Positions 410 through 37,048 of a stretch of DNA of 64,000 bases are shown in pieces (the stretch's first letter is position 1; each line of letters begins with the position of its first letter). The position numbers were made by a program, and so were the translations under genes. The notes beneath the pieces are model-generated. The model was not told the origin of the DNA. It did no database searches and saw nothing but the letters and a program-made list of their open reading frames with translations. This DNA comes from an uncultured Caldisericota bacterium (GTDB taxonomy: Bacteria > Caldisericota > Caldisericia > UBA6126). The stretch covers positions 4,434-68,433 of the forward strand of contig CAYRBR010000002.1 in the NCBI GenBank assembly GCA_964422555.1, written 5' to 3'.

Positions 410-410
410 T

Positions 411-3564: not shown

Positions 3565-3609
3565 GTAAAACAAGTTTATTCTTCATTTGATGCCAACTTA
3601 GTAAGCAAG

Positions 3610-4002
3610 GTGTATTCTTGTGATCAAAAAAGTAAAAGCCCTAACTTTAGTAACCCTCTTTATCAATCCCTCATTGTCCTTGATCCTGGATCAGCAAATC
3701 GGCTTTATATTGAAGGTTTCCTAAATAAGTTTAAAAAAGCTTTTATTGCTTCTTCTTCCTCTAAAAAACTAGCTCCCGAGATTAGCTCACATTTAGTACC
3801 TGTAAAACTAAACATGAACGATAAAGCCAAAGCCATTACTATGAAAGATTCCTGCAATACATTTGAAGAAGCTGGCCTTGCGTTTATTGTGTGTAAAAAG
3901 AAACACTGTAAGTACTATATTTCTTCCTATCAACTACCAAAGAAGATAATGGGTATTGAAATTCTTTCAGTTCATGAAATTGTAAAGTCACTTGAAAAAT
4001 GA
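3610..4002 (+). CDS. Small hypothetical protein (130 aa, GTG start; start uncertain)
   Basis: ORF between the large membrane protein gene and apbE. Its end overlaps the apbE start by 11 nt. No recognisable motifs. Confidence 0.3.
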   Translation: MYSCDQKSKSPNFSNPLYQSLIVLDPGSANRLYIEGFLNKFKKAFIASSSSKKLAPEISSHLVPVKLNMNDKAKAITMKDSCNTFEEAGLAFIVCKKKHCKYYISSYQLPKKIMGIEILSVHEIVKSLEK

Positions 4003-4999
4003 TATGAAAAAAAAGGATTCCTTTTTTTCTTCCGTAATTTTTCTTTTAGTTTTGTCCTTTTTTTTTCTATCATGCAGAAATACTCCCTTAAATCAAAAAA
4101 TTAAATGGCACTCTAAAACTCTTTTTTATATGGATACTTTTCTTACAATTCAGATACCTTCGGAGTCTGATTCTGATACCCTTCTTCTGTCAGTTCAAAC
4201 AATACTAGATGACATAGATAAGAAATTAAACGCATATTCCATTGGTTCTGATGTATATAGAATCAATCAAAATGCTGGGTACACACCGATTACCGTAAGT
4301 GACGAAACTATTTTTGTTCTTAAGAAATGTATTGATTTTTCGGACGATAGTAAGGGTTTATTCGACATTACATTCCTTCCAATACAGGATTTGTATGGTT
4401 TCTCTGACAAAGAGTATCGTATACCCTCTGAATTAATCCTTACTGAGACATTGAAGCTTGTTGATTATAAAAATATTATTATTAATGAAGAACATTCAAC
4501 CGTACTCCTTGCAGAAAAGCAGATGAGAATAAATCTCTCTGGCATAATTAAAGGCTATTCGCTTGATAAAATTACAGATTTTCTTCAATCATCATCTGTA
4601 GAGTATTATAAGATTGACTTTGGAGGAAACTTAGCTTTATCCTTACCTGATTCAATCCCTGTAGGGATTGAAAGCCATGAAAATAGTATCCAGAACACTA
4701 TCATGATGAAGCAGGGCTTTATATCTACCTCATCCGGTTCTCATCAGTCATTCATAAAAGGTGAACAGCTTTACACACATATAGTTAATCCAACCACAGG
4801 CTCTGCTAAACCTTGTGTCTTATCTGCTACCGTTAAAACTTGGAGTGGCATGGAATCTGATTTTCTTTCAACCTACTTTTTTTTAGCAGGTTCCAACCCT
4901 AGTCCCTTAATCATAAAAAAATACCTTCCTCAAGCCTCTGTTTATATCTATGATCTTGATGGCCATTTCAGTACTTATGCAGAAAATTACAATCCGTAA
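3992..4999 (+). CDS. apbE: FAD:protein FMN transferase (ApbE family) lipoprotein
   Basis: Signal peptide with a Cys (FFFLSC). ApbE-like motifs: YSIGSDVYRINQNAG (S-x-S-x-x-S-R-l-N), GIIKGYSLDKI, IDFGGNLAL, ISTSSGSHQSF, HIVNPTTGSAKP. Canonical position after rnf genes. Confidence 0.75.
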   Translation: MKNDMKKKDSFFSSVIFLLVLSFFFLSCRNTPLNQKIKWHSKTLFYMDTFLTIQIPSESDSDTLLLSVQTILDDIDKKLNAYSIGSDVYRINQNAGYTPITVSDETIFVLKKCIDFSDDSKGLFDITFLPIQDLYGFSDKEYRIPSELILTETLKLVDYKNIIINEEHSTVLLAEKQMRINLSGIIKGYSLDKITDFLQSSSVEYYKIDFGGNLALSLPDSIPVGIESHENSIQNTIMMKQGFISTSSGSHQSFIKGEQLYTHIVNPTTGSAKPCVLSATVKTWSGMESDFLSTYFFLAGSNPSPLIIKKYLPQASVYIYDLDGHFSTYAENYNP

Positions 5000-5486
5000 C
5001 TTAACAACTTTTTCATTGTTACTAACCATCGGTATCATTCTTCACTTTGTGGAGTTTTATATTTCCATTCCGATTGGTGGGTTTGTTTTGAAGCCAGGTG
5101 TTTCGAACATTGTTATCCTTATTTGTCTATATTATTTTGGAATCAAAGAAACAATTTTACTTGCAGTTTCAAGAATTCTCTTATCTGCTCTTTTCGAACC
5201 ATCCATTAATAGTATGACTATCGCGATAAGTTTTGGGGGAGTTGTTTTAAGTCTTACCGCAATTATTCTGCTTTTTTGTTATAGTCGTTTTAATATCAAA
5301 ATTATTAGTGTTATTGGAGCTATTCTGCACAATATCGGTCAACTTATTGTCGTACTATTTTTTATTCCTTGCAATTATTTATTATACTATTTACCATTAA
5401 TAGTTGTTTCTGGTTTTTTTGGAGGCTATATTACTGGCTGGATAGCAGAAGTGTCTTTGCAAAAGATAGATTCTATTAATACTTAG
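4950..5486 (+). CDS. Small polytopic membrane protein (5-6 TM; Gx-transporter/ECF-S-like fold suspected)
   Basis: Hydrophobic 178-aa ORF overlapping the apbE 3' end. Alternative ATGs at 4959 and 4977 reduce the overlap. No enzymatic motifs. Confidence 0.5.
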   Translation: MILMAISVLMQKITIRNLTTFSLLLTIGIILHFVEFYISIPIGGFVLKPGVSNIVILICLYYFGIKETILLAVSRILLSALFEPSINSMTIAISFGGVVLSLTAIILLFCYSRFNIKIISVIGAILHNIGQLIVVLFFIPCNYLLYYLPLIVVSGFFGGYITGWIAEVSLQKIDSINT

Positions 5487-5507
5487 CAAGATGAAATGGA
5501 GTAGAGT

Positions 5508-6545
5508 ATGAATTTTGGTCATTTTGGAAAAGATATTGCAATCGATCTTGGAACCGCTAACACACTTGTTTATATTGCTGGACAAGGGATAATGCTCAGA
5601 GAGCCTTCTATAGTTGCAGTACGTCGTGAAAATGGGGAAATTATTGCAATTGGTAACGAAGCAAAACGTATGGCGGGTCGTGTTCCAGAGGCAATACAGA
5701 TAATTCGTCCCTTGAAAGATGGGGTAATTGCAAATTTTGAGGTAACTCAAAAACTTATAGAATACTTAATACAAAAAGTAGGAGCAAGAAAAGGTTTTTT
5801 TGGGTTTATTAAGCCTCGATTAGTTATCGGAATCCCCTCTGGTATCACTGAAGTTGAAATGCGAGCAGTAGTTGAAGCAGGATATCAAGCAGGAGCTCGT
5901 TATGTTGGTTTAGTTCAAGAACCTATGGCAGCTTCTTTTGGAGCAAACCTTCCTGTAAGTGAACCTACAGGCAATATGATTGTTGACATTGGTGGAGGCA
6001 CATGCGAGGTAGCCGTTGTTTCATTAAATGGAATCGTCGCTAAAAATTCAATACGAATTGCCGGTGATGAAATGAATGAGGCAATTCTTCAATACCTTAA
6101 AAGACAGTACAACCTGCTTGTTGGAATTTATACTGCTGAAGAAATAAAAATTGAAATTGGAACTGCATATCCTAGTGATCAGGTAACAACAGCCGAAATT
6201 AAAGGAAGAGATCTCATTACGGGTCTTCCTCGAACTGTAACAATAACCTCAGAAGAGACGCGTATCGCATTAAATGACGTCTTGATTAGTATTATGGAAG
6301 CAGTTAAAGCAACTCTTGAAAATACACCTCCAGACCTTGGAGCTGATATTATTGACAGAGGTATATTTCTTGCAGGTGGAGGTTCCTTAATTCGTGGAAT
6401 GGCCAGATATATTTCAGAAGGTACTGGCATTCTAGTATCAAATGCTGAAAACCCTGTTCTTTGTGTAGCGCTAGGTGCAGGTAAAATAGTTGAAAACCTT
6501 GAAAAACTTATGCCACTTTTATTGAAGGTGAAGTATTATAAATAA
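5508..6545 (+). CDS. mreB: Rod-shape determining actin homolog MreB
   Basis: N-terminal DIAIDLGTANTLVY phosphate-1 motif, DIGGGTCEVAV, and a GGGSLIRG C-terminal motif. About 345 aa. Confidence 0.9.
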   Translation: MNFGHFGKDIAIDLGTANTLVYIAGQGIMLREPSIVAVRRENGEIIAIGNEAKRMAGRVPEAIQIIRPLKDGVIANFEVTQKLIEYLIQKVGARKGFFGFIKPRLVIGIPSGITEVEMRAVVEAGYQAGARYVGLVQEPMAASFGANLPVSEPTGNMIVDIGGGTCEVAVVSLNGIVAKNSIRIAGDEMNEAILQYLKRQYNLLVGIYTAEEIKIEIGTAYPSDQVTTAEIKGRDLITGLPRTVTITSEETRIALNDVLISIMEAVKATLENTPPDLGADIIDRGIFLAGGGSLIRGMARYISEGTGILVSNAENPVLCVALGAGKIVENLEKLMPLLLKVKYYK

Positions 6546-7367
6546 ATGTCTATAAAAAAAAGAGGCTTTTTGTGGCTTGTTATCTCCCTAGTCTTCTTTT
6601 TAGCTATTTCTTTTTATTGGAGCTTTAGTGATTCATCTTTTTCAATTGCATCCCAAGGATTTGTTAGAAATACTATAAGCCCCGTAGGAAAAATGTTCTC
6701 GTCATTTGGTTCTTCGATACATAATTTGCTTGCAAATCTACAATCCTACCCAAGTTTAGTCGAAAACAACCAAAGACTTTTGATTGAGAATGAATCATTA
6801 AAGAATGAAATTAAGATACGTGACCAAATTCAGTTTGACAATGAAAGATTTTCAATGTTACTAGGAATAGTGCAGGATAATCCTAACACATATATCCCTG
6901 CATCTATCATTTATCGAACCCCAGACTCTACTATGAATTTTATAATCAACAGGGGTTCAAATTCGAATGTTAAAGATGGATTGGCTGTGGTTTCCCCAGT
7001 TTACAAGAACAGTTCACTATCACATTTCCAACTCCTTGGTAAAACGATAGATGTTTCAAAACTCGACTCTCCAGTTTTATCACTCTATGATGAAAACTCA
7101 AATGTCAGTATCCGTAATCTCCGCAATAATGTAAATGGAACTGTATCCTTCAATTCAAAAAACAACACTCTGTATGTAAAATTCTACAAAAAAGAAGATT
7201 ATCAGCTCAATGATATTTTAGTTGTTAGTTCTTTTTCTTCATTGCCAAATGATTTACTGGTGGGATCTATTGTAGAAATTCAGCCGACTGAATCAATACA
7301 TTACCTAGCGATCGTTAAACCTGTCAAAGATTTTTCAAAGATTACAGAGGTTCTTGTTATTCAATGA
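6546..7367 (+). CDS. mreC: Rod-shape determining protein MreC
   Basis: Starts 1 nt after the mreB stop. N-terminal TM, coiled-coil segment, then beta-rich C-terminal domain. Position between mreB and mreD. Confidence 0.7.
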   Translation: MSIKKRGFLWLVISLVFFLAISFYWSFSDSSFSIASQGFVRNTISPVGKMFSSFGSSIHNLLANLQSYPSLVENNQRLLIENESLKNEIKIRDQIQFDNERFSMLLGIVQDNPNTYIPASIIYRTPDSTMNFIINRGSNSNVKDGLAVVSPVYKNSSLSHFQLLGKTIDVSKLDSPVLSLYDENSNVSIRNLRNNVNGTVSFNSKNNTLYVKFYKKEDYQLNDILVVSSFSSLPNDLLVGSIVEIQPTESIHYLAIVKPVKDFSKITEVLVIQ

Positions 7368-7840
7368 TCTACATAATTATTGTATTCCTTCAAGTTTTCA
7401 TTGTATGCCTTGATTTGTTTTTTTTTCCAAGTTTACTTCATTCCAGAACACCAATCGGCTTATCTTTGCTTTTTGCTATTTCCATGGTTTACCTGTTTCA
7501 AACCAAAGGTTTGTTTAGTATTCTCCCCGGATTACTCCTAAAACTCAGTTTTCTACCTACAACAATCGTAGTACCCACACTTATAGCATATTCACTATTT
7601 ATATTGCTATCTTTTCTTTTCAAAAACAATCAACAATCCCATGCAAACTCTTTGTTTATTCTTTTCTCTTATGTGGTGATTCTTAGTATTTTTATTTTTC
7701 AGTTTTTCTTTTCTTGCCCTAACCCTTTTTACACATTTATTCTAAATCTACTTTTATATACTTTTGTTATTCTTCCTTTGTTCTATATTTTTTCCAAAAA
7801 ATTGTTTTCGATCGCTCTCAGAAAAAAGCCTATTCTATGA
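7364..7840 (+). CDS. mreD: Rod-shape determining protein MreD (polytopic membrane)
   Basis: ATGA overlap with mreC. Very hydrophobic 158-aa protein. Operon position between mreC and mrdA. Confidence 0.6.
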   Translation: MIYIIIVFLQVFIVCLDLFFFPSLLHSRTPIGLSLLFAISMVYLFQTKGLFSILPGLLLKLSFLPTTIVVPTLIAYSLFILLSFLFKNNQQSHANSLFILFSYVVILSIFIFQFFFSCPNPFYTFILNLLLYTFVILPLFYIFSKKLFSIALRKKPIL

Positions 7841-9627
7841 ATCATATCCCTTTAGTAAAAAAGAATATCGACATTCATCCTGTTAAGATCGTTCTTTTTA
7901 TTTTAATCATTTCAGCATGTTCCGTATTCCTTATAACAAAACTCCTTATCTTGCAAGGATTCGAACAAGAGAAATATGCTCATTTAGCAACTAATAATTA
8001 CAACCGGTACAGTCTTCAAGAAGCTCCAAGGGGTACCATATATGATCGTAATGGTATTGTTTTAGCAGAGGATGTTCCCACTTTTCATCTTTATGCAGTT
8101 CCCAGCGAAATACCACAACCAAAATACTCCTCAAAATTAATACATGACTTAATAGGTATAAACCAAGAAACAGTCATTCAAAAAATTACTGAAAATTATT
8201 CTTTTGCCGAGATCTTGCTAAAAGAAAACCTATCCTACGAAGAAAGAATTCGTCTGGAAGAAAACGAATACAAGTTAAAGGGTTTCTTCATAAAAGAAGG
8301 GTATAAGAGGTTTTACCCTAAAAATTCTTGTCTGTGCCATGTTATAGGATACACGGGAGTTATTTCACAAGATGATCTGGCTAGAAAGAAATATTCCGCA
8401 TATCAGCCAAATGAGAGGATAGGCATTTCAGGTATAGAAAGATACTACGAAATGTTACTTCATGGCACACCTGGACTTAAGAAGCAAACAATTGACGTAT
8501 ACGGTCATGTCGTGGATGAAATAACTGAAAAAGAAGTTATAAAAGGGAAAGATATCTACCTAACCATTGATTCCAGACTTCAGGAAAAAGCAGAAGAAAT
8601 CATACAGGATCATCGGGGATGCCTTGTTCTTATGAATTGCAATAATGGTGAAATCATAACTTGCGCATCAAATCCTACTTTTGATCCAAATTACTTCTCT
8701 GGACCCAGACCTATTGAAACTTGGAACTTATGGGTGGAGAATAGAGCTTTTTTCAACATTGCAACCATGGGACAATATCCACCTGGTTCAACATTCAAGC
8801 CCATTGTCGCTTTATTTGGATTAGTAAGTGGTTATCTTACAGATTCCGAATATATTACGTGTACTGGTTCTTTGAAAATCCCCGGACAAGAAGATAAATA
8901 CAGATGCTGGGTATATCCTTCTTCACATGGACCCTTACAATTAAAGAGAGCAATACAGGTATCTTGTGATGTTTATTTTTACCTTGCTGCCGAAAGATAT
9001 CCTATTGAATCTTTCATATCATTTCTAAAAGATTTTGGAGGCATATCAAAAGCTACGGGAATTGATTTACCGTCTGAAGAAAGTGGCTTTCTTGGTAGTC
9101 CGGAATGGAAAGAAAAATTTAAGGGACAATCCTGGTTTAAGGGTGATTCTATGAATTTAGGAATTGGGCAAGGTTTCTTATCTGTTACACCTATTCAGAT
9201 GACAAAATTATATGCTAAAATTGGGAACAAAGGGAAACATATTCAACCTCACCTCCTACTTGTTGAAAACTCTGAATCAAATTCAACTGATTCGTTAGAT
9301 AATTATGCAGATCACAATATTTCACATTACGACTACGATACTATTTTAGAAGGTATGCACATGACTACTCTGTATCCTGGTACTGCATCCGGACTATATA
9401 CTAACTCAGTAGAGATCGCTGCAAAAACCGGCACTGCATTGGTTCAGGGACAAGGTAGAGATATCCAGCATCTTTGGCTTGGTTCAATATTCCCCTATGA
9501 AGATCCTCAGTATAGTTGTTTCCTTCTGTTCGAAAATTCGCAATATCAATTAGCAAGTAATTTAACTCCATTTTTAAAAAATTTTATTGTATACTTTTAT
9601 CAGCTTGATGCATCGGAGGTGAATTAA
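7837..9627 (+). CDS. mrdA: Penicillin-binding protein 2 (elongasome transpeptidase)
   Basis: ATGA overlap with mreD. N-terminal TM. Motifs S-x-x-K (GSTFKP), S-x-D (SCDVYFY, as in PBP2) and KTG (KTGTA). Confidence 0.85.
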   Translation: MNHIPLVKKNIDIHPVKIVLFILIISACSVFLITKLLILQGFEQEKYAHLATNNYNRYSLQEAPRGTIYDRNGIVLAEDVPTFHLYAVPSEIPQPKYSSKLIHDLIGINQETVIQKITENYSFAEILLKENLSYEERIRLEENEYKLKGFFIKEGYKRFYPKNSCLCHVIGYTGVISQDDLARKKYSAYQPNERIGISGIERYYEMLLHGTPGLKKQTIDVYGHVVDEITEKEVIKGKDIYLTIDSRLQEKAEEIIQDHRGCLVLMNCNNGEIITCASNPTFDPNYFSGPRPIETWNLWVENRAFFNIATMGQYPPGSTFKPIVALFGLVSGYLTDSEYITCTGSLKIPGQEDKYRCWVYPSSHGPLQLKRAIQVSCDVYFYLAAERYPIESFISFLKDFGGISKATGIDLPSEESGFLGSPEWKEKFKGQSWFKGDSMNLGIGQGFLSVTPIQMTKLYAKIGNKGKHIQPHLLLVENSESNSTDSLDNYADHNISHYDYDTILEGMHMTTLYPGTASGLYTNSVEIAAKTGTALVQGQGRDIQHLWLGSIFPYEDPQYSCFLLFENSQYQLASNLTPFLKNFIVYFYQLDASEVN

Positions 9628-9628
9628 A

Positions 9629-10327
9629 TTGCCCTCAAAAAGAACACCCGATACTGTAGTCAATTTTAAAGGAGTCTCCAACGGGATTCTTATGTCATTA
9701 GAGCTTGACGATTATGAATTTGATAAAGTTGTCAGGAAAGCAGTTTCAATATATAAAAAGAAGCGAAGCTTTTTTGGACAAAATGTTGATTTGTTCGCCA
9801 CTGGTTTTACCAGAGACCTTACTGTTGACGAAGTTGGCATGACTAGGAAAATGTTTGACTATTTGGCTCACAAAGAAGTTCTACCCTACAAAGATACTCT
9901 GCCACAAAATCCCCAATCCTCTTCGAATGAATCTATTATTCAGACTGACAAACTTTCACCCTTTGAAGATATTGAAACGAATGAAAACAGTAATGAATTT
10001 TTAGTAATTGGTAAGGATGTTCGAGCTGGCATAGTAGTCCATTCCCCCGGGAATATAATTGTCTTTGGAAATATTAATTTTGGCGCAAAGGTGATTGCAG
10101 GTAAATCTCTTTATGTTTATGGTTCAATAAAAGGGGATGTAACGTTTGCATCTAGTAAAACTTGCAATCAGGCAATACTAACCTGTTTAAAAATGCAAGC
10201 AATAAGTATCCATACGAAAAAGGAGTTAATTAAAAATCCCATTCAAACCTTAGAGACTGAATCCTTTCCCCTGTATATTTTATACAATAATGGTAACACA
10301 AGCATTGTTACAATGAATGATGGATAA
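9629..10327 (+). CDS. minC: Septum site-determining protein MinC
   Basis: TTG start 6 nt after GGAGGTG. C-terminal beta-helix region GIVVHSPGNIIVFGNINFGAKVIAGKSLYVYGSIKGDV typical of the MinC C-domain. Followed by minD. Confidence 0.7.
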   Translation: MPSKRTPDTVVNFKGVSNGILMSLELDDYEFDKVVRKAVSIYKKKRSFFGQNVDLFATGFTRDLTVDEVGMTRKMFDYLAHKEVLPYKDTLPQNPQSSSNESIIQTDKLSPFEDIETNENSNEFLVIGKDVRAGIVVHSPGNIIVFGNINFGAKVIAGKSLYVYGSIKGDVTFASSKTCNQAILTCLKMQAISIHTKKELIKNPIQTLETESFPLYILYNNGNTSIVTMNDG

Positions 10328-11117
10328 CAAAGGTCAGATCATTGTTTTTACATCCGGTAAAGGTGGGGTTGGTAAATCAACTTTAGTTGCAAACATTGGT
10401 ACTGCAATCGCTCTTCAAAAAAAGAGAGTTGTTGTGATTGATATGGATATTGGCCTAAGAAACCTTGATATGATTCTTGGACTAGAACGTAAAGTTAGAA
10501 CAAACATCGTTGATGTAACCAAAGGCTTCAGTTCTGTTGACGATGCACTCATTTTTGACAAACGGACAAACAACTACCTATCTTTGATAGCAGCTTCCCA
10601 AAGTGACATGAAAAAGGATATTAATTTATTTAAATTCCATGGTGTTCTTACCTATCTTGAAAAGCGTTTTGATTTTATTTTAATTGATTCTCCCGCAGGA
10701 ATTGAAGAAGGTTTCAGCAAGTCTATTTACTATGCAAAAAAAGCGTTTGTTGTTGTTAACCCTGAGATTTCTTCTATTCGTGACGCGGATAGGGTTTTAG
10801 CATTGCTTGAGAGTCATCGAATCAAAAAGGATATTTTTCTGATCATTAATCGATATAATCATAAACTCAGTAAACGAAGCTACTATATTTCTTCTGACGA
10901 TATCGTTGCTCTTCTCCATGTCCCCTGTGTTGGCATTGTATCAGAAGATGAACGCATCCTCAGGCAGAATAATTCAGGCAGCCCATTTGTATACCAAAGC
11001 AACCTTCCTATTGCTACAGAAATAAAAAAAATATCCCGGATGATTATTGGGAAATCCCCGCAGAAATCTAAATTGAATGTTTCTAAATCTTTGTGGAATA
11101 AAATGAAGAACAGTTAA
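10317..11117 (+). CDS. minD: Septum site-determining ATPase MinD
   Basis: Deviant Walker A SGKGGVGKST. ParA/MinD-fold 266-aa protein with a C-terminal amphipathic tail. Confidence 0.9.
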   Translation: MMDNKGQIIVFTSGKGGVGKSTLVANIGTAIALQKKRVVVIDMDIGLRNLDMILGLERKVRTNIVDVTKGFSSVDDALIFDKRTNNYLSLIAASQSDMKKDINLFKFHGVLTYLEKRFDFILIDSPAGIEEGFSKSIYYAKKAFVVVNPEISSIRDADRVLALLESHRIKKDIFLIINRYNHKLSKRSYYISSDDIVALLHVPCVGIVSEDERILRQNNSGSPFVYQSNLPIATEIKKISRMIIGKSPQKSKLNVSKSLWNKMKNS

Positions 11118-11129
11118 TAGGAGTTTAAC

Positions 11130-11363
11130 ATGAGTTCAAAAGCCTCTAATCGACTAAAAATAATTCTTAATGAAGATAGAAAAATTCTATCTAAACAAAG
11201 TGAAAAAGATCTTAGAAAAAAGATTGCCACTGTAATGAGTGAATATTTTGCAATAGACAAACGAAAAATACGTATCAATGTGATAAAAACCAATCATCAG
11301 GCCGAATACAAATTAACGGCTGACATGCCCATTAAAAAAAGTGAGTTAGAAAAAGACCAATGA
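11130..11363 (+). CDS. minE: Cell division topological specificity factor MinE
   Basis: 77-aa protein following minD. Preceded by AGGAG. Confidence 0.75.
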   Translation: MSSKASNRLKIILNEDRKILSKQSEKDLRKKIATVMSEYFAIDKRKIRINVIKTNHQAEYKLTADMPIKKSELEKDQ

Positions 11364-12532
11364 GGATCATTCATGTTGGAAGCCTCTTTATTGGTCTTCA
11401 GAACCTTGGGAAGTCAACTGATAATAGCTACATGTTTTCGCAAGTTCAAGACTATTTTGACTACCTGTCATTTATTGCTGAATATGTAGATAAGAACTCT
11501 ATCGATGTGGTTTTATTCTCTGGTAATTTATTCTTTTCTTCACACCCAAGCCCTTTCTTACAATGGAAATTAGGGAATGTGTTGGAAAAAATGCACAAAA
11601 GTGATATAAAAATTTTTATACTCCAGAACCAATATGATCAATCAGACTCATACTCTTCCAGTAGTGAAATATGTAGTTATTCTATGCTAGATAAATACGC
11701 TAGATTTGTTAACAAACCTAGCGTTCATCCAATCAAAAGAAAAAAGGATTCTATTCAAATTGCCTTTTTACCCTTTAAAAGAAGTCCCTTCTCAACAGAC
11801 TCTAAAAACCTTGGTAGTAACAAAACGAAAGAGTTTGAAAAGGAGCTTAAAATACTCTCTTCACAAATTGACTCGGATATACCATCCTTTCTTATGACAC
11901 AAGCTTTAATCGACAATGTTAAACAATACTACCTGTTTAATTCTCTGCCAGAAATCTCTTCATCAATATCTGATTCTCTCCCGTTTCACTATATCTCTCT
12001 TTCGAATTTTCCATTTTCAAAGATAATTCCTGTTCATCGTCGAAACAACCAAACTGTGTTTTATTCTTATCCTGGTACATTGGGTGAAATCGAATTTGAA
12101 GATTCTTTAATTGATCGCGGTTTTATTTTGTATGACACAAAAAACAACAATTCTCCTGTTTTCGTACCTAATGCAGCAAAACGTCACACTGCTCTTATTC
12201 GGGTTCATGGACAAAACGAAGAAGAGGTATGGGAAAAACTAAATGAAGAATTTCTTTTAAACGATTACAGAGACTATATTACCACAATTGTCGTTCAAGC
12301 TCCCTTAAGAATAAATCCAAACGTAATTCGTGATAAGTATTCTGAGCATTGTTACTACATACAAAGAATCGTATCGCAAAAAGAGATTGTTAAATGTGAA
12401 GAAACGTATAACCAAATTGGCTTTTCAGATTTTTTAAGATCCTATTTAACCTTACAAGATATTCAAGACAAGGACTTTTTAGAAGATGTTTATAAACAAG
12501 GCAACCAGTATTACGAGAAGACAAAACTGTGA
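11360..12532 (+). CDS. sbcD: SbcD/Mre11-like protein with degenerate phosphoesterase motifs (predicted non-catalytic)
   Basis: ATGA overlap with the minE stop. The N-terminus MRIIHVGSLFIG parallels SbcD MR-I-HTSD-HLG but lacks the D and H metal ligands. GD becomes GN in motif II (VVLFSGNLFF). GNHD becomes QNQYD. Confidence 0.55.
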   Translation: MRIIHVGSLFIGLQNLGKSTDNSYMFSQVQDYFDYLSFIAEYVDKNSIDVVLFSGNLFFSSHPSPFLQWKLGNVLEKMHKSDIKIFILQNQYDQSDSYSSSSEICSYSMLDKYARFVNKPSVHPIKRKKDSIQIAFLPFKRSPFSTDSKNLGSNKTKEFEKELKILSSQIDSDIPSFLMTQALIDNVKQYYLFNSLPEISSSISDSLPFHYISLSNFPFSKIIPVHRRNNQTVFYSYPGTLGEIEFEDSLIDRGFILYDTKNNNSPVFVPNAAKRHTALIRVHGQNEEEVWEKLNEEFLLNDYRDYITTIVVQAPLRINPNVIRDKYSEHCYYIQRIVSQKEIVKCEETYNQIGFSDFLRSYLTLQDIQDKDFLEDVYKQGNQYYEKTKL

Positions 12533-15510
12533 TGATTACACCAAATTTCATTGAAATCAATAATTTCCTCTCGTATGTAGGTACACATAAATTATCCTTC
12601 CAAGAAAATTCTTACTATCTAGTCTCTGGTAAAAATGGAGCTGGCAAAAGTGCTTTAGCTGATACAATGATTTTTTCTTTGTTTGGTATTCTTCGTTCAG
12701 AATATTCTCCCTTCAATAATCAAATTCTTTCTTTTGGAGCTGAATCAGGCTATATCCAGTTTGATTTCTTTTTAAATGACACTTTGTGGAGAATTCGACG
12801 TGATTTTTCTACTGATTCAACAAATAATCACATTCAGTTTAAAAAACGCCAAAATACATACTGGAAGAACTATACTCTTTCTGAAGATTCCTTGACTCAA
12901 CAGCAAATCTTAGATACTTTAAAAATAACTCCTCAACAGTTTTTCATGACTTTTTTTAAGACAAACAGTTATCCCTCTTTCTATGAGTTTCTTTCACTTA
13001 ATAATGTTGATAAGTATACTGCTGTATCGCGATTTCTTAATGTACCCTCTTTTGATTTGATTCAAAAATTTGTAGAGAAAGATCTCCAAGAATACGCAAT
13101 AAGGAAAGAATATCTTTCTACTTTTATAAACCAGAATAAATCGAAAATAAAAGAAAAAAAGCAACTTGAAAAAATCCTTCATGAGAGTAAAGATAAGTTG
13201 GCTAAAACGAAAGAACAGATACTACATTTAAAGCAAGATATCGATCAACAAGATTTACTCTGTAAAGAAATTGAAAATGGCCTTCAAAATAAAAAAATAT
13301 TGATGGAACGAATTCAGTATCTACGAAACAACCAGAATGAAAAGCGAACTGAAAGACAACTTCTTTCTGAAAAATTAAATGAATTGCAAAATGCAATTAA
13401 AATCCAGCATGAAATTGAAAATGGGTATAAACAGTTATCTGACTTGATCGTTTTAAACAAAAAATACAATGAAAATTTTGAACAGAGAGAAAGAATTCAA
13501 CATCAAATTGATGAAATTCAAACTATTCTAGATGATCAAGAAATCGCATTAAAGAAAAAGGCAAATGATCTAAAACAAGCTGAAGATGAATACTCTGAAA
13601 AGAAAAAATATCTTCCTGATTTAAATTTAAAAATGCAAGCAATCCAATCCAAGTTGAAAGAAATGGAAAAAGTTCGCTATCAAGTTCAAAAACTTGAAAA
13701 AGAAAAAGAATCCATTCAAAAGGAAATTGATGTCCTTAATGAAAAAATTGGGATGTTGAAAAAAGAAAGGATCATCATACGAGAAAAGAAAGAAAAAATC
13801 TATAAAGAAGTAGTCTCTTTCGAACAAATTATTCAAAAAGATCAAAGTACGAAAAAGAAATTACAAATCCTAAAAGAGAATAAAGAGAAGGTTAAATTAT
13901 TACAAGACCAAATTGATTTAGAAGAAAAAAAGAAGAACATTTTATCTCAACAAAATGAACGTTTCGAGTCCATGATAGAAACGCTAAACGAGAAGATCAG
14001 TATTTTCCACATAACGGATGAATTTGAAAATCGATGTCCAGCTTGCGGTACTCCACTTACAAAAGAAAAAGAATCTGAAATACTCTTGAACTACAAGCGT
14101 GATTTAGAGATGAAAAAATCTACATTAAATAGAAACCTGAATACGCTCCAAAAAATGGAAAACAAGATAGTCTCACTGAACAGTGATAAAAATGTTCTTT
14201 CTTCGGATTTTCATCTTGAGGAAGATTTACAACAACAATATTTGCAAATACAAGAATGTAAAGCCTCTATAAGAACTAAAACCGAGAATCACTACCGAAC
14301 AAAACTTCAGGAATCGAAAATTGAAGAAGAGCTTAACAAAACTACTTACTCGATAAACAATCTAAAAAGTCGTTTGAAAACAGCTGATCAGCAATTCATA
14401 AATTTAACACTTGTCCTTTCTAACCAAACTGTATTGGAAAACAATTTAGGAGATCTTCACAAACAAATTTCAGAAGCTTTAGAGGTAGACCAAAAATTAC
14501 CCAGTATTCTAAAACAATTAATTGAAACAAAGCGGAAAATTGAAACAAAAAACTATTCTCAAGACAATTGGAAAAAACTAAATGAACTTAAAAAAAGAAT
14601 CCTCTCTATTCCTTACAGTGTAGCTGAACACAATCAAATTAAGAATAAAATTAATCAACTTAAATATTTCGAAACCGAAAAAAGAGTAATGGATGAGAAA
14701 TTAATTGAAAAAGACAGTGTTTTGAACCAATTATCCTCTGTCGATAAAAAACTTGGTTCTCTTCAATCTGAGATTGATAAAAATATTGATTCAATAAAAG
14801 GTATACCCTACCAACAAAAGGATCTCTATGCTGAACAAGATAAGAAAAAATGTTTAGTTTCAAATAGAGAGCAATCTGAACTCGAAGAAAAAGATTTGGA
14901 AATAGAGATTTCGAAGTTTGAACAAAATATGGAAGACATTCACCGACTACAAATAAAATATGGTGAAGCACTTGAAGAATTTAATACATACCTTAAAAAA
15001 GAAAAAAGTGTTACAATATGCAGAGAACTCTTAAGAGAAACCGCTATAGGAGTTTTTATCGTTTCCCGTATTATACCCTCTCTTGAATTTTATGTTAACG
15101 GTATTTTATCTTCTCTCACAGACAACGATATACAGGCATCCGTTTCTTTGACGAAAAGTAAAAATAATAATCAACAACTTACAGTAAAGATTATTGAGAG
15201 CGGTCATTCAATCTCATATGAATACCTAAGTACCGCAGAAAAGTTTAAAGTTAACATTGCATTTCGGCTTGCCTTTTCTAAACTACTCTCAGATCATCCT
15301 GAAAACAATAGGGTGTTTTTATGTATTGATGACGATTTTGGTTCATTAGATTTAAATAGTAAAAATCAAATAATTCTCTCTTTGTTAAAGTTAAAGAAAT
15401 CCATCAATACACTTTTATTGATAACACATTCAAACGTGTTCCAGAATTGCTTTGACTACAGAATTCGTATTCAGAAAACCAGAAATACTTCATCTTTTTC
15501 ATATTATTAA
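12532..15510 (+). CDS. sbcC: SbcC/Rad50-like SMC-family ATPase with central zinc hook
   Basis: TGATG overlap with the sbcD stop. Walker A GKNGAGKS and long coiled-coil arms. CPACG hook near the midpoint (14044-14058). C-terminal signature-like LSTAEK, Walker-B-like FLCIDDD, D-loop SLD, H-loop LLITHS. Confidence 0.75.
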   Translation: MITPNFIEINNFLSYVGTHKLSFQENSYYLVSGKNGAGKSALADTMIFSLFGILRSEYSPFNNQILSFGAESGYIQFDFFLNDTLWRIRRDFSTDSTNNHIQFKKRQNTYWKNYTLSEDSLTQQQILDTLKITPQQFFMTFFKTNSYPSFYEFLSLNNVDKYTAVSRFLNVPSFDLIQKFVEKDLQEYAIRKEYLSTFINQNKSKIKEKKQLEKILHESKDKLAKTKEQILHLKQDIDQQDLLCKEIENGLQNKKILMERIQYLRNNQNEKRTERQLLSEKLNELQNAIKIQHEIENGYKQLSDLIVLNKKYNENFEQRERIQHQIDEIQTILDDQEIALKKKANDLKQAEDEYSEKKKYLPDLNLKMQAIQSKLKEMEKVRYQVQKLEKEKESIQKEIDVLNEKIGMLKKERIIIREKKEKIYKEVVSFEQIIQKDQSTKKKLQILKENKEKVKLLQDQIDLEEKKKNILSQQNERFESMIETLNEKISIFHITDEFENRCPACGTPLTKEKESEILLNYKRDLEMKKSTLNRNLNTLQKMENKIVSLNSDKNVLSSDFHLEEDLQQQYLQIQECKASIRTKTENHYRTKLQESKIEEELNKTTYSINNLKSRLKTADQQFINLTLVLSNQTVLENNLGDLHKQISEALEVDQKLPSILKQLIETKRKIETKNYSQDNWKKLNELKKRILSIPYSVAEHNQIKNKINQLKYFETEKRVMDEKLIEKDSVLNQLSSVDKKLGSLQSEIDKNIDSIKGIPYQQKDLYAEQDKKKCLVSNREQSELEEKDLEIEISKFEQNMEDIHRLQIKYGEALEEFNTYLKKEKSVTICRELLRETAIGVFIVSRIIPSLEFYVNGILSSLTDNDIQASVSLTKSKNNNQQLTVKIIESGHSISYEYLSTAEKFKVNIAFRLAFSKLLSDHPENNRVFLCIDDDFGSLDLNSKNQIILSLLKLKKSINTLLLITHSNVFQNCFDYRIRIQKTRNTSSFSYY

Positions 15511-15579
15511 ATTGACAAATTTAGTTTGTTCTTTTTAATGATCAACGTATTTTTATGGTTTTGAAAGCGGGGATCTATC

Positions 15580-15777
15580 TTGAAACAAATAGAAAAGATT
15601 ATCATCGATGAGAAACGTTGTAAACATTGTAGCATTTGTGTTCATATCTGCCCAAAGGAAGTCTTGGAAGAAGATTCAACTGGCACAATATTTGTCGAAA
15701 ATTTAGCAGCTTGTATCGGCTGCATGTCTTGCCAGGATCATTGTCCAGATTTAGCAATTGAGGTGATTACATCATGA
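15580..15777 (+). CDS. 2-oxoacid:ferredoxin oxidoreductase delta subunit (2x[4Fe-4S] ferredoxin)
   Basis: 65 aa with CKHCSICVHICP and CIGCMSCQDHCP. ATGA-coupled to the alpha subunit. Confidence 0.7.
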   Translation: MKQIEKIIIDEKRCKHCSICVHICPKEVLEEDSTGTIFVENLAACIGCMSCQDHCPDLAIEVITS

Positions 15778-16898
15778 GTTACCGAAGAGAAATCTTACAA
15801 GGCGCACAAGCGTGTGTAAGGGGAGCAATAAAATCTGGTATAGGTTTTTTTGCTGGATATCCTATAACACCCTCTACTGAGGTTGCAGAACTTTTTTCAA
15901 CTGAACTAGCGAAAGAGCAAAAGATTTTCATCCAAATGGAAGATGAAATTGCTAGCATAACTGCTGTCATTGGCGCATCTTTGGCTGGAAAAAAAGCAAT
16001 GACTGCAACATCTGGTCCTGGTTTTTCTTTAATGCAAGAAGGATTGGGATATGCCTGCATGGCAGAAGTACCCTTAGTTCTTATAAATGTGCAACGGGGA
16101 GGACCCTCCACCGGTTTACCTACTCGGGTTGCACAAGGTGATGTCATGCAATCCAAATGGGGAACCCACGGTGATCACCCTATGATTGTGCTCTGTCCCT
16201 CTTCTGTACAAGAACTCTACGAGATGACAATTGAAGCATTTAATCTTTCAGAGCAATATCGTAACCCTGTTATTATATTGACCACCGAAACTATCGCTCA
16301 TATGCGAGAAAAAGTCGAAATTGATTTATCGGTAGAACCAAAGATCTACAATCGACTCACTCCAAGACTAAAAATTGGTGAAAAATATCTTCCCTATGGT
16401 AAATTTGCTGACGACGTACCCATTATGGGAAATATCGGCGACGGTCTTGGCACAAGTATTACCGGTTTGGTTCATATGGAAAATGGCTTTCAAAGCGCAA
16501 ATTACGAAGTAGCAGATCGATTGATTCGTAGAATTAATCGAAAGATTGAAAAACATACTAAAGATATCTTTTCCATGGAAATCATTAACCCAAACGCCAA
16601 AAAAATGTTCATTTCATATGGAGTTGCAAGCCGAACCATTAACTCTTTGATTCATTCAGATCATGATGATATTGGTTTAATTCGTGTTAAAACTCTATTT
16701 CCAATTGACCCCGAACAAATTCGAAAAGCAACCGAGCATGCATCTCAAATCTTTGTTACTGAATTAAATCTTGGTCAGTATTACCAGGAGATCCAGAAAA
16801 TTCTTCCTAATCGTAATGTTCATTTAATTGAGAAAATTGGCGGAGAACTAATCCCTCCAAAAGAAATGTTAAGAAGAATTGAGGAATACAATGATTAA
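15774..16898 (+). CDS. 2-oxoacid:ferredoxin oxidoreductase alpha subunit (KorA/VorA/PorA family)
   Basis: 374 aa with typical alpha-subunit N-domain GYPITPSTEV and GPGFSLMQEGLGYA. Sits in a delta-alpha-beta-gamma cluster. Confidence 0.85.
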   Translation: MSYRREILQGAQACVRGAIKSGIGFFAGYPITPSTEVAELFSTELAKEQKIFIQMEDEIASITAVIGASLAGKKAMTATSGPGFSLMQEGLGYACMAEVPLVLINVQRGGPSTGLPTRVAQGDVMQSKWGTHGDHPMIVLCPSSVQELYEMTIEAFNLSEQYRNPVIILTTETIAHMREKVEIDLSVEPKIYNRLTPRLKIGEKYLPYGKFADDVPIMGNIGDGLGTSITGLVHMENGFQSANYEVADRLIRRINRKIEKHTKDIFSMEIINPNAKKMFISYGVASRTINSLIHSDHDDIGLIRVKTLFPIDPEQIRKATEHASQIFVTELNLGQYYQEIQKILPNRNVHLIEKIGGELIPPKEMLRRIEEYND

Positions 16899-17706
16899 AG
16901 GTGAAAAGTTTTATCATCCAGATAGATTGCCCACTATATGGTGCCCTGGTTGTGGTAATGGTATAGTATTACACGGTGCTATGGAAGTTTTAGATGATTT
17001 AAATTGCACAAAAAAAGATGTAATTTGTGTATCTGGTATTGGGTGTTCCTCGAGATCTGCAACATACACCCAATTTGATGAAGTTCATACACTGCACGGT
17101 CGTGCAATTCCCTTTGCTACTGCAATAAAACTTTGCCAGCCAGATAAGAAAGTCATTGTATTCACTGGTGATGGTGATTCAGCAGCAATAGGTGGGAACC
17201 ATCTAATCCATGCTGCTAGAAGAAACATTGATATTACTGTTATAGTATTTAACAATAGTATATATGGTATGACTGGCGGACAAGTATCACCGTTAACAGA
17301 ACCATTCAAGAAAGGAACTACTGCTCGTTTTGGTAACTACGAAAACCAATTTGATTTAGTTCAACTATTATTAGGAGCTGGGGGAACCTATATTGCAAGA
17401 ACAGGAACCTACTACTATAAGATGATGAAAAAGTATATGAAAAAAGCCTTTTTAAGAAAAGGTTTTTCCTTTATAGAAGTTATATCTCAATGCCCTGTCT
17501 ACTACGGTCGACTTAACAAGATGGCAAAACCCTATGATATGCTAACCAACCAAAAGGATATTCTTGTTTCAAAAGATAAGTATGAAACATTATCCTCTGA
17601 CGATAAATTTGGGAAATTACCCATTGGTGAATTTATTGAAGATAATTCTCAACCATCCTATTTAGAAAAAAGAGAGCAACTTTTAAAGAAGGTGAGAGAA
17701 ACATGA
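16891..17706 (+). CDS. 2-oxoacid:ferredoxin oxidoreductase beta subunit (TPP-binding)
   Basis: WCPGCGNG Cys motif and TPP-binding GDGDSAAIGGNH. ATG at 16891 follows GAGGA; the ORF track start at 16879 overlaps the alpha stop. Confidence 0.85.
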   Translation: MIKGEKFYHPDRLPTIWCPGCGNGIVLHGAMEVLDDLNCTKKDVICVSGIGCSSRSATYTQFDEVHTLHGRAIPFATAIKLCQPDKKVIVFTGDGDSAAIGGNHLIHAARRNIDITVIVFNNSIYGMTGGQVSPLTEPFKKGTTARFGNYENQFDLVQLLLGAGGTYIARTGTYYYKMMKKYMKKAFLRKGFSFIEVISQCPVYYGRLNKMAKPYDMLTNQKDILVSKDKYETLSSDDKFGKLPIGEFIEDNSQPSYLEKREQLLKKVRET

Positions 17707-18233
17707 GAGTAGAATTACGCTTTTCTGGTTCAGGTGGTCAAGGTTTAATTACCGCTACTCGTATTATTGCTAGAGCTGCATTAAGAGAAGGTAAAAATGC
17801 AATGCAATCTCAATCTTATGGAGCTGAGGCAAGAGGTGGTGCTACTAAAAGTGAAGTAATCATAAGCACTCGAGAAATATACTATCCTGAAATCGAAGTA
17901 CCTGATGTATTACTTTTAATGACAAAAGAAGCCTACCAAAAATATGGCACTACCATCAAAGAAGGTGGTATTCGTATTTTAGATAGTTTTTTCATACCTG
18001 ATTATGAAAGAATCTCTAAAGCTCGAACATACACAGAACCTTTTACTTCAATTTGTGAGGAAGAATTTAAAACACAGATCATGGCCAACATGATAATAAC
18101 AGGATATTTGATTGGTATCACTAAAGTTGTCTCTCTTGACTCATTTAATCAGGCCATTGGTGACTTTTTCTCAGATGATAAACTTACAAACAATATAAAA
18201 GCAGCAAAATTTGGCTACAATCTAGCAATCTAA
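17703..18233 (+). CDS. 2-oxoacid:ferredoxin oxidoreductase gamma subunit
   Basis: ATGA overlap with the beta stop. 176-aa gamma-family sequence GSGGQGLITATRI. Confidence 0.8.
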   Translation: MRVELRFSGSGGQGLITATRIIARAALREGKNAMQSQSYGAEARGGATKSEVIISTREIYYPEIEVPDVLLLMTKEAYQKYGTTIKEGGIRILDSFFIPDYERISKARTYTEPFTSICEEEFKTQIMANMIITGYLIGITKVVSLDSFNQAIGDFFSDDKLTNNIKAAKFGYNLAI

Positions 18234-18247
18234 TCATTCATTAAGAA

Positions 18248-19477
18248 CTATTCCAGGTCGTGTTCCCCAAGAGAACACGACCTTTTTTTATTTAAAAATA
18301 CGGCAACTAATTTACCAAAGAATCGAATCAAAACATTGTCTAGTTCTTTATGAGCTTTTTTCAACTCTTTTCGTATTTTAATACTTTGAGGACATAATTT
18401 TTCACATCTTCCGCAATCAGTGCATAAATCTACTCCAGATTTTCTTCCCCCCATGAGACCTAGTAACTTTCCTAAATAACTCAACTGTGCTGCTTTGCCA
18501 CCAAAAAAAGATTTATTATTGTAGTCACTAAAGATTCCTGGTATGTCCACGCCATATGGACAAGGCATACAATAACCACAACCCGTACATGGCACTTTCA
18601 TTAATCGATTGAAAATTACTTTTACGTCATTAATAATGTTAATTTCCTCTTCGGACATACTACCAGGTTTTGTAGTGTCAGCAACGTGAATATTCTCTTC
18701 TATATGAACTTGTACATTCATACCGCTTAACACAATTCCTACTTCTTTTTGATTCCAAATCCAGCGTAATGCCCAATGAGAAGGTGACCTGTTTTCCTTA
18801 TATTCATTGAATTTATGGATTGCCTCCATTGGTATTTTAGATGCTAAATTCCCTCCACGAAGGGGTTCCATTACTACTACACCGATATTTTTCTTATAAG
18901 CGTTGTATAAGCCAGCCACTCCAGCCTGATTATATTCATCTAAATAATTGTATTGGATTTGACAAAAATCCCAGGGAAAATCATTCAATATTTTTTGAAA
19001 TTCATCAGGCCTTCCATGAAATGAAAAACCGATAAAACGGATCTTTTTGTTGCGTTTCATTTCATTAACAAAAGAGATAATCCCGAATTCTTTTAATCTC
19101 TCCCATGTTTTAAAACTATCAAGCATATGCATTAAGTAGTAATCTATATAATCGGTTCCTAGTCTTTTTAGCTGAGTAAAAAAGAATTTTTTTATCTGTT
19201 CTGGTCTTTGTAACAAAAACGTAGGTAGCTTATCGGCTATATAAACTTTCTTCCGTATTTGATTTCTTGCAATAAACTTACCTAAAATTATCTCGCTTTT
19301 CCCTGCATGGTATGGATAAGCGGTATCAAAATAATTAACACCATTCTCGTAAGCATAAAGCAATTGGTCATAGGTTTTTTTCTCATCAATGCGAGTATTC
19401 TTTGTTGGAAATCTCATACATCCGTACCCTAAAACTGATACAAAATCCCCGCCTTTGACTAATTGTTTATATCTCAT
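18248..19477 (-). CDS. Aldo/keto reductase fused to a C-terminal 2x[4Fe-4S] ferredoxin-like domain
   Basis: AKR N-domain (GYGCMRF, FDTAYPYHAGKSE). C-terminal CTGCGYCMPCP and CTDCGRCEKLCP. Confidence 0.8.
   Translation of the reverse strand: MRYKQLVKGGDFVSVLGYGCMRFPTKNTRIDEKKTYDQLLYAYENGVNYFDTAYPYHAGKSEIILGKFIARNQIRKKVYIADKLPTFLLQRPEQIKKFFFTQLKRLGTDYIDYYLMHMLDSFKTWERLKEFGIISFVNEMKRNKKIRFIGFSFHGRPDEFQKILNDFPWDFCQIQYNYLDEYNQAGVAGLYNAYKKNIGVVVMEPLRGGNLASKIPMEAIHKFNEYKENRSPSHWALRWIWNQKEVGIVLSGMNVQVHIEENIHVADTTKPGSMSEEEINIINDVKVIFNRLMKVPCTGCGYCMPCPYGVDIPGIFSDYNNKSFFGGKAAQLSYLGKLLGLMGGRKSGVDLCTDCGRCEKLCPQSIKIRKELKKAHKELDNVLIRFFGKLVAVFLNKKRSCSLGEHDLE
18256..18289. terminator. Rho-independent terminator between convergent genes (10-bp GC-rich stem GGTCGTGTTC/GAACACGACC, 7-nt loop, T7 run)
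   Basis: Perfect inverted repeat 18256-18282 followed by TTTTTTT. Lies 23 nt after the gamma-subunit stop and overlaps the last codons of the minus-strand AKR gene. Confidence 0.55.
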
Positions 19478-37047: not shown

Positions 37048-37048
37048 C

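Follow-up and report, generated by a model that had tools for sequence, protein, structure and literature searches.

To our knowledge, complexes of the Mre11-Rad50/SbcCD type are universal, and their nuclease and ATPase activities are usually treated as inseparable from their function. Here we describe a pair of genes that appears to have kept the build of such a complex but not its catalytic residues. The pair lies in a 64,000-nucleotide (nt) stretch of DNA from an uncultured Caldisericota bacterium (GenBank assembly GCA_964422555.1, contig CAYRBR010000002.1, positions 4,434 to 68,433 of the forward strand; hereafter the window, to which all positions refer). It resembles bacterial SbcCD and Mre11-Rad50 as described for E. 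coli, T. maritima and M. jannaschii (PDB 3qg5, 3av0 and 6s6v) in gene order, with the nuclease before the ATPase, and in its capping domain, Rad50-binding helices, bipartite ABC head, long coiled coil and mid-sequence CxxC hook. Unlike these systems, the pair lacks eight active-site residues of the nuclease as well as the Q-loop glutamine and the Walker B glutamate of the ATPase, and its signature motif is altered; and unlike SbcCD genes that form separate repair operons, it is embedded in a string of mre and min genes. As far as sequence can tell, the two genes are degenerate derivatives of sbcD and sbcC by descent that fail the defining catalytic features of both families.

Strings of mreBCD and minCDE genes occur in Clostridia. 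In Firmicutes, the linkage of mreBCD to min is classical and includes the divIVB region of B. subtilis (Varley & Stewart 1992, cited in PMC6126333). The window shares with the Firmicutes arrangement the order mreB-mreC-mreD with min genes directly after it in the same orientation, and differs from it in having a gene for penicillin-binding protein 2 (PBP2) between mreD and minC, no rodA after that gene, and the SbcCD-derived pair after minE. We know of no description of such a pair appended after minE in Firmicutes, and our literature searches retrieved no relevant paper on min-linked SbcCD, on naturally inactive SbcD/Mre11 or on the cell-division genes of Caldisericota.

Catalytic sites of the SbcD-like and SbcC-like proteins

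The SbcD-like protein (390 amino acids (aa); 11360-12532, + strand) had no Pfam match even at E<=10, Metallophos (PF00149) included, and scored 47.2 bits against TIGR00619, below the cut-off of 77.65. When five SbcD-like proteins of the degenerate clade were aligned with 49 canonical SbcD proteins, the eight di-metal and catalytic columns (D8, H10, D56, N91, H92, H181, H216 and H218) were 94-100% conserved in the canonical set, and all eight were replaced in the window protein (S8, F10, N56, Q91, Y92, Q181, N216 and P218). The other members of the clade have likewise replaced H10, D56, N91, H92, H181 and H216, with D8 kept in four of them and H218 in one. Residues of structural importance are retained, namely G12, D31, D49, G55, P63, D93, P138, Y211, Y237, G239, G254, F255 and R275. 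An AlphaFold2 (AF2) model of the protein reached a predicted local distance difference test score of 90.1 and a predicted template modelling score of 0.83, and the top 50 Foldseek matches of this model in the PDB were all Mre11 or SbcD, with E-values down to 1.6e-17. Among these matches are full-length chains of Mre11-Rad50 complexes, with alignments of about 400 columns, so that the model evidently also comprises the capping domain and, at the C terminus, the helix-loop-helix that binds Rad50. The Mn2+-dependent exo- and endonuclease activity of SbcD is predicted to be absent from this protein.

Close relatives of the SbcD-like protein are few. A word-index search of 5.8 billion proteins yielded only three, and when 1.84 billion representatives were scanned exhaustively with HMMER, the alignment of these three relatives serving as the query, only three clusters at 50% identity passed E<1e-30; the next matches after the degenerate clade, from E 7e-25 onwards, were canonical SbcD. 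The protein combines an Mre11 fold with a co-oriented, overlapping SbcC-like gene and with the same slot that is occupied by intact SbcD in other Caldisericia.

The SbcC-like protein (12529-15510, + strand; 993 aa, or 992 aa if the start is the ATG at 12532) scored 65 bits against TIGR00618, below the cut-off of 478.5, and only the generic AAA_23 family exceeded its Pfam threshold. A phmmer search of the PDB nevertheless matched the N lobe of Rad50, the zinc hook (1l8d) and the C lobe, and the AF2 model consists of a head lobe, helices at residues 172-494 and 511-863 that flank a loop at 495-510, and a second head lobe. The Walker A motif is present (GKNGAGKS at residues 33-40; GxNGAGKS across the clade), as are the H-loop ITH(S), the D-loop FGSLD and the zinc hook, CPACG at residues 502-505 of 992, which lies near residue 500 as in the intact orthologues and belongs to an invariant NRCPxCGTP.

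Other motifs of the ATPase have fared differently. A motif alignment indicates that the Q-loop glutamine has been lost in all seven degenerate clusters: the counterpart of the canonical (M/L)QG(R/K)(A/S)D is TNSYPS in the window protein and SSSF or SSTI in the relatives, with a two-residue insertion. The signature motif, canonically LSGGE, reads LSTAE in the window and LS(S/Q)GE in the relatives, so that the serine and the glutamate are kept and the glycines are partly lost. In Walker B, the window protein has FLCIDDDFG as opposed to IDEGFG in the intact SbcC of Caldisericia, a change of glutamate to aspartate, and the relatives have asparagine, glutamine or, in one lineage, glutamate at this position, which, given such variation, is evidently no longer constrained. 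In the precomputed domain assignments, SbcC_Walker_B (PF13558) is missing from the degenerate clade and present in P0160, a deeper relative found in the search with the SbcC-like protein (28% identity over the full length).

Could the pair be an ordinary, active SbcCD nuclease for hairpin and end processing that merely shares a transcript with mre and min? The weak NCBIfam similarity to SbcD and SbcC and the Mre11 and Rad50 folds recovered by Foldseek are in keeping with this view, which holds for the sister lineages at loci L011, L013, L015 and L017. For the window pair, we consider it very unlikely, given the replacement of all eight nuclease residues, the absence of a Metallophos match, the missing Q-loop glutamine, the Walker B aspartate, the LSTAE signature and scores far below the family cut-offs. 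The Mre11/Rad50-type complex named in an earlier reading of the window from its sequence alone (the sequence-only reading) is accordingly not supported as a functional nuclease, although the relation to SbcD and SbcC that it recognized is real.

The same kind of head joined to a long coiled coil is found in SMC-like ATPases such as RecN, MukB, JetC/Wadjet and LmuB/Lamassu, to which the SbcC-like protein shows a generic structural similarity in Foldseek; SbcE-SbcF/YhaN-YhaO of B. subtilis is a further bacterial example. Unlike these proteins, the window protein has a CxxC zinc hook instead of an SMC hinge, a partner with an Mre11 fold and a clear descent from the SbcC of Caldisericia, and its weak PADLOC matches to LmuB and JetC cover mostly the coiled coil and the P-loop. 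A role in anti-phage defence was considered and set aside: PADLOC had no match for the SbcD-like protein, its matches for the SbcC-like protein were generic ones to SMC heads or coiled coils (LmuB, 3.8e-13; JetC; PbeC), and no partner genes were found. The net charge and isoelectric point (pI) of the degenerate heads and nuclease domain are similar to those of the intact orthologues; a loss of DNA-binding charge, for which these values were inspected, found no support in them, and the comparison is uninformative.

Descent, selection and linkage to minE in Caldisericia

Intact SbcCD genes occupy the same place in other Caldisericia. Those at L011, L013, L015 and L017 agree with the window pair in slot, orientation, neighbours, coupling to minE, protein lengths and hook position, but have kept the DxH, GD, GNHD, H and GHxH motifs of the nuclease and the Q-loop, SGGE and Walker B DE of the ATPase, and have evolved more slowly relative to MinD. 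Intact motifs were observed at L011, L013 and L015, and in the intact Caldisericia orthologues they read DLHLG, GD, GNHD and GHIH in SbcD and MQGRAD, SGGE and IDEGFG in SbcC. Identity between the degenerate clade and the intact Caldisericia proteins is 24-29% for SbcD and 26-33% for SbcC. In a neighbour-joining tree of SbcD, the degenerate clade was monophyletic with a support of 100/100, as were the intact Caldisericia proteins, and the two were joined with 85/100. Because canonical SbcCD is the state of the outgroup and intact versions reside in the same slot, the degenerate state is derived, and the topology of the SbcD tree fits a single conversion event. Nor, with an active ancestral SbcCD already in this slot, can the degenerate function be the reason why the linkage came about.

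Both degenerate genes evolve faster than their intact orthologues and yet are under strong purifying selection. The ratio of SbcD identity to MinD identity is 0.51-0.54 in the degenerate clade compared to 0.80-0.85 among the intact lineages, and the corresponding values for SbcC are 0.59-0.66 and 0.88-0.95. Among close relatives, the ratio of nonsynonymous to synonymous substitution rates (dN/dS, Nei-Gojobori) is 0.09-0.12 for the SbcD-like gene and 0.05-0.10 for the SbcC-like gene, similar to the 0.07-0.11 of MreC; the value for MinD is 0.02-0.05. The reading frames are full-length throughout the degenerate clade (378-394 aa for the SbcD-like and 975-993 aa for the SbcC-like proteins), within which sequence divergence reaches 60%.

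These observations bear on the view that the pair is a decaying relic on its way to becoming a pseudogene, without a function and still present only owing to a recent loss or to a tolerance of polar effects. The loss of the active sites and the faster divergence than in the intact lineages are what such decay would produce. Full-length frames of conserved length, a dN/dS of 0.05-0.12, the conserved overlap of start and stop codons and the invariance of Walker A, the zinc hook, the H-loop and many structural residues are not, and we give this explanation very little credence.

The adjacency of minE, sbcD and sbcC was found in every sampled Caldisericia lineage, at no fewer than 13 further loci, from three degenerate clusters and at least three intact lineages; this taxonomic breadth is a lower bound. 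The adjacency is kept even where MinD identity is as low as 45%. Among the loci with measured codon junctions, which are the window and 10 others, the distance between minE and sbcD ranges from −8 to +5 nt and that between sbcD and sbcC from −29 to +1 nt, and the spacer between sbcC and the ferredoxin (fdx) and kor genes that follow varies from 63 to 311 nt across loci. All loci recovered for the degenerate clade (L001-L008) have minE directly before the pair, even though their three clusters are only 37-40% identical in SbcD. Contigs that are long enough show the full block, which runs from a gene for a 778-aa protein through ApbE, Hpre_diP_synt_I, mreBCD, mrdA, minCDE and the pair to fdx and korABG. 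The same block surrounds P0160 at L011 (GCA_003559155.1, contig PWMK01000015), where SbcD matches Metallophos and SbcC matches SbcC_Walker_B, and the arrangement recurs in three more intact lineages or samples (L013/L014, L015 and L017/L018). Across the intact loci, Metallophos matches were found in the SbcD of L011, L013, L014, L015, L017 and L018, and weak SbcC_Walker_B matches in the SbcC of L011, L013, L015, L017 and L018. The related loci come from metagenome-assembled genomes (MAGs) titled or named as Caldisericia or Caldisericota.

Two SbcD proteins served as outgroups for genomic context, and neither is encoded near min genes: P0224 (L016), at the level of 36-37% identity where the named matches are Chloroflexota and Anaerolineae, and P0006 (L009 and L010). 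Linkage of minE, sbcD and sbcC is a feature of the class Caldisericia as a whole, and several of its lineages carry intact SbcCD there. The sequence-only reading was thus right that the arrangement is not a standard one; it had named a unique adjacency as a finding that would overturn it, and the adjacency is not unique, being conserved in all sampled relatives.

Several of these loci show peculiarities of their own. At L007 (8248-9761; Caldisericia MAG AnMBR.bin291), minC is split into 8248-8580 and 8531-8926 and minD into 8965-9285 and 9300-9761, while the neighbouring genes are intact; the splits are due to frameshifts in the assembly or else to a genuine decay of Min in that genome. Locus L005 (DAIMET010000003.1) is titled 'Calditrichota bacterium', although its proteins share more than 90% identity with those of a 'Caldisericia bacterium' (the cluster of P0157 and P0195) and its gene order is that of Caldisericia MAGs; the label is probably wrong. 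Among canonical SbcD proteins, P0006 (L010, 46-1891) came nearest to the degenerate clade in the profile search. Its gene has a gene for uracil phosphoribosyltransferase after it in place of sbcC, and with a pI of 8.8 the protein is basic, in contrast to the rest of the SbcD proteins examined; P0006 may be an orphan SbcD.

A further protein of interest in the phylum is P0175, a 1003-aa SMC-family ATPase in a Caldisericaceae MAG (L012, 6158-9705), with the hook, SGGE and Walker B DE intact. Its gene has no SbcD neighbour, is not near min and overlaps an upstream gene for a 179-aa protein with an LDcluster4 domain, and P0175 may belong to a separate Rad50-like system. As a candidate for a paralogous replacement of the degenerate pair it was rejected, because it could not be tied to genomes of the degenerate clade. 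A search for a second canonical SbcCD, which covered the large open reading frames (ORFs) of the 64-kb window, found none.

A proposed DNA clamp produced with the Min proteins

Judged by its sequence, the min-linked SbcCD has turned into a pair of pseudo-enzymes in the subclade that includes the window. The explanation that we favour, with moderate confidence, is that this pair forms a clamp or tether on DNA that binds ATP, does not cut, and is made together with the Min proteins. With the Mre11 fold, the Rad50-binding helices, the P-loop, the H-loop, the coiled coil and the hook all kept, the two proteins would still assemble into a complex of the M2R2 type that binds ATP and dimerises through the zinc hook. 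Without its nuclease site, this complex would no longer cut DNA, and without the Q-loop glutamine and the Walker B glutamate, it would hydrolyse ATP poorly or not at all. Weak hydrolysis, in turn, would bias the complex towards the ATP-bound closed state that, in characterised Mre11-Rad50 complexes, binds and tethers DNA and blocks the nuclease. The role of the pair would then probably be structural, that is, holding, tethering or sensing DNA in step with the cell cycle rather than processing DNA ends.

Work on active complexes provides a precedent. According to the abstract of PMC5435944, Rad50 in its ATP-bound closed form favours the binding and tethering of DNA and protects it from nucleolytic processing, and endonuclease activity requires hydrolysis; the abstract of PMC3642328 describes one function of MRN that needs ATP binding but not hydrolysis, the hook connection or the nuclease. 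Because the closed state tethers DNA and prevents its processing, the joint loss of the nuclease site and of the residues for hydrolysis is coherent. Eukaryotic MRN/MRX, with its tethering, its activation of ATM/Tel1 and its ATP-bound closed state, can likewise do useful work without Mre11 nuclease or hydrolysis (PMC3642328, PMC5435944). These are, however, separation-of-function states or mutants of an active enzyme, whereas the inactive state of the window pair appears to be hard-wired by evolution, and there are no Nbs1 or ATM partners.

As the start codon of the SbcD-like gene overlaps the stop codon of minE, the pair should be made in proportion to the Min proteins. An action of the pair together with them, for example a surveillance of the nucleoid or chromosome tied to division, is speculation, and so is the handling of chromosomes at the septum that had been suggested from the gene order. 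In its boldest form, the idea would make the pair an evolutionarily fixed separation-of-function Mre11-Rad50, a nuclease-dead, ATP-locked and hook-linked clamp that works with Min and couples nucleoid position or chromosome integrity to the choice of the division site, in the manner of nucleoid occlusion or through chromosome tethering; we regard this specific version as doubtful.

It is also conceivable that the role of the pair has nothing to do with DNA, and that a coiled-coil protein and its partner have been exapted as a cytoskeletal or scaffold element, analogous in principle to the division regulators rich in coiled coil, with the head serving only for ATP-dependent dimerisation. Co-expression with Mre and Min, the loss of all DNA-cutting chemistry and the retention of the hook and of the coiled-coil length would suit such a role. 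Nonetheless, the idea is entirely speculative: we identified no membrane-targeting motif and no motif for interaction with FtsZ or Min, and the head and nuclease-domain net charge, being like that of the intact orthologues, gives no sign of a lost DNA-binding surface. We consider it unlikely.

Several points weigh against the clamp explanation. That the proteins form a complex, bind DNA and have no activity is deduced from sequence and predicted structures. One degenerate lineage, P0154 at L008, keeps the Walker B glutamate, and some members of the clade may have residual ATPase activity. The sampled relatives all belong to one class, so that the conserved loci are not phylogenetically independent, and the entire block of about 19 genes is syntenic, unrelated metabolic genes such as ApbE and kor included; the adjacency could therefore be historical rather than functional.

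The gene run, its flanks and the meaning of the linkage

The run from mreB to the SbcC-like gene consists of nine co-directional ORFs on the + strand (5508-15510), spaced by between −11 and +12 nt, and in both coordinates and tight coupling it is as the sequence-only reading had described it. The run opens with mreB (5508-6545; 345 aa), which scores 440 bits against PF06723 and 472 bits against NF010539 (cut-off 293), and whose product is 93% identical to that of the relatives. It is followed by mreC (6546-7367; 273 aa; PF04085, 81 bits against a cut-off of 28), the putative mreD (7364-7840; 158 aa), mrdA for the PBP2 transpeptidase (7837-9627; 596 aa; TIGR03423, 493 bits against 455; PBP_dimer and Transpeptidase domains), minC (9629-10327; 232 aa; PF03775 (MinC_C), 54.5 bits against 33.2), minD (10317-11117; 266 aa; TIGR01968, 270.7 bits against 212.9) and minE (11130-11363; 77 aa; PF03776, 43.5 bits against 25), all on the + strand. 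MreB, MreC (Pfam), PBP2, MinC_C, MinD and MinE (Pfam) thus exceed curated cut-offs, and the min genes are adjacent and co-oriented. The TTG start of minC is supported by the conservation of its N-terminal region (residues 1-229) among the relatives. The junctions measure 0 nt (mreB/mreC), −4 nt (ATGA; mreC/mreD and mreD/mrdA), +1 nt (mrdA/minC), −11 nt (minC/minD), +12 nt (minD/minE), −4 nt (ATGA; minE/sbcD) and −4 nt (GTGA; sbcD/sbcC), the last becoming −1 nt (TGATG) with the ATG start at 12532.

The gene names proposed from the sequence alone are broadly right, apart from the SbcD-like and SbcC-like proteins, which fall below the cut-offs of their families, and from mreD, which has no homology support. 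Neither the 158-aa hydrophobic membrane protein nor four of its orthologues had any Pfam or NCBIfam match even at E<=1; the protein has several hydrophobic stretches and always lies between mreC and mrdA, in all loci, so that the name is a positional one, based on place, size and hydrophobicity.

No rodA/mrdB gene follows mrdA in the window (7837-10327), where minC comes after the PBP2 gene at +1 nt, as it does in all related loci; the SEDS partner of PBP2 must therefore be encoded elsewhere.

The terminator scan found no intergenic terminator-like hairpin inside 5508-15510, in agreement with the sequence-only reading, but the run is not bounded by a signal at 15510: the first strong intrinsic-terminator-like hairpin is located at 18255-18283 (+ strand), with an 11-bp stem that includes six GC pairs and is followed by a T tract. 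Between 3000 and 19000, terminator-like matches numbered 12, compared to 7.5±2.7 by chance, and promoter-like matches 59, compared to 62±7.5; both scans were at chance level and set no limits to the operon. There was no promoter signal above chance before mreB and no terminator signal directly after the SbcC-like gene, where the 69-nt spacer (15511-15579, + strand) contains a TTGACA hexamer and neither a stable hairpin nor a terminator match; RNA folding of 15470-15600 gave a z-score of −0.45 and hence no indication of a terminator or attenuator. An Rfam scan of the whole window returned no structured RNA or riboswitch.

Upstream, the run is continued by an ApbE-family gene (3992-4999) and a Hpre_diP_synt_I-family gene (4950-5486) that ends 21 nt before mreB, and downstream by genes for a ferredoxin and for the alpha, beta and gamma subunits of a 2-oxoacid:ferredoxin oxidoreductase (korABG-like; 15580-18233); all are on the + strand, have Pfam matches and belong to the conserved syntenic block. 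The order of ApbE and Hpre is identical at L005-L008, L015 and L017. Co-directional genes extend beyond ApbE to position 17, and the transcription unit may, judging by gene orientation, span up to about 19 genes (17-18233). The nine-gene operon that had been proposed is accordingly delimited by function, with no signal at either boundary.

As listed, the ApbE and Hpre_diP_synt_I ORFs overlap by 50 nt, and the true start of the latter probably lies further downstream. Between an Rnf-type cluster (17-1235) and ApbE, the region 1228-4002 encodes the 778-aa protein, which has a weak IgGFc_binding match (E 2e-7), and a 130-aa ORF without a family match, both of which are conserved in the relatives, where their counterparts occupy the same position and share 45-60% identity with them. 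Two 2-oxoacid:ferredoxin oxidoreductase systems are found within the 64 kb, the split one with ferredoxin, alpha, beta and gamma (15580-18233) and a fused 1179-aa enzyme of the pyruvate:ferredoxin oxidoreductase (PFOR) type (54095-57634, − strand). A V/A-type ATPase cluster lies at 31522-39579 (− strand; A subunit at 33523-35343, I subunit at 37561-39579), and at L017/L018 such a cluster is likewise located just downstream of the block. A 1650-aa sensor histidine kinase (57722-62674, − strand) has multiple PAS domains and one GAF domain and ends in HisKA-HATPase_c.

That a whole block is syntenic makes neutral synteny the serious rival of the clamp explanation. Under it, the pair was captured once into a string of housekeeping genes in the ancestor of Caldisericia and has been kept by inertia, with no tie to MreBCD, PBP2 or MinCDE and with its degeneration as a separate matter; it is compatible with a dead complex and disputes only the link to division. 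Unrelated genes stand in the same order in all lineages (the IgGFc_binding-like 778-aa protein, ApbE, Hpre_diP_synt_I and ferredoxin-korABG), nothing in the promoter or terminator signals marks off the nine genes, and all conserved loci come from one class. In none of the 11 loci measured, however, does the distance between minE and sbcD leave the range from −8 to +5 nt, even where MinD identity is only about 45%; the downstream spacer, by comparison, measures 63-311 nt. Translational coupling also implies matched expression. On this balance, we regard neutral synteny as possible, though not as the probable account. The functional tie to the elongasome and the Min system that was originally drawn from gene order does not follow from it, given that adjacency alone is no proof when the syntenic block includes unrelated metabolic genes.

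With both catalytic centres dismantled and the fold, hook, coiled coil and P-loop maintained by selection, the pair amounts to a natural experiment on what such a complex is for when it neither cuts DNA nor turns over ATP. The occurrence of intact and degenerate versions in the same operon slot of sister lineages provides matched pairs of proteins for biochemistry. The class-wide linkage to minE through overlapping codons raises the possibility that complexes of the SbcCD type are coordinated with the selection of the division site, which bears on the means by which bacteria keep from dividing across chromosomes that are damaged or not yet complete. Should the link to Min be merely historical, the pair would still be a clear example of a core machine of genome maintenance that has evolved into pseudo-enzymes. 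If the reading as a Min-coupled clamp is true, it would be the first bacterial derivative of Mre11-Rad50 with a purely structural function in the cell cycle.

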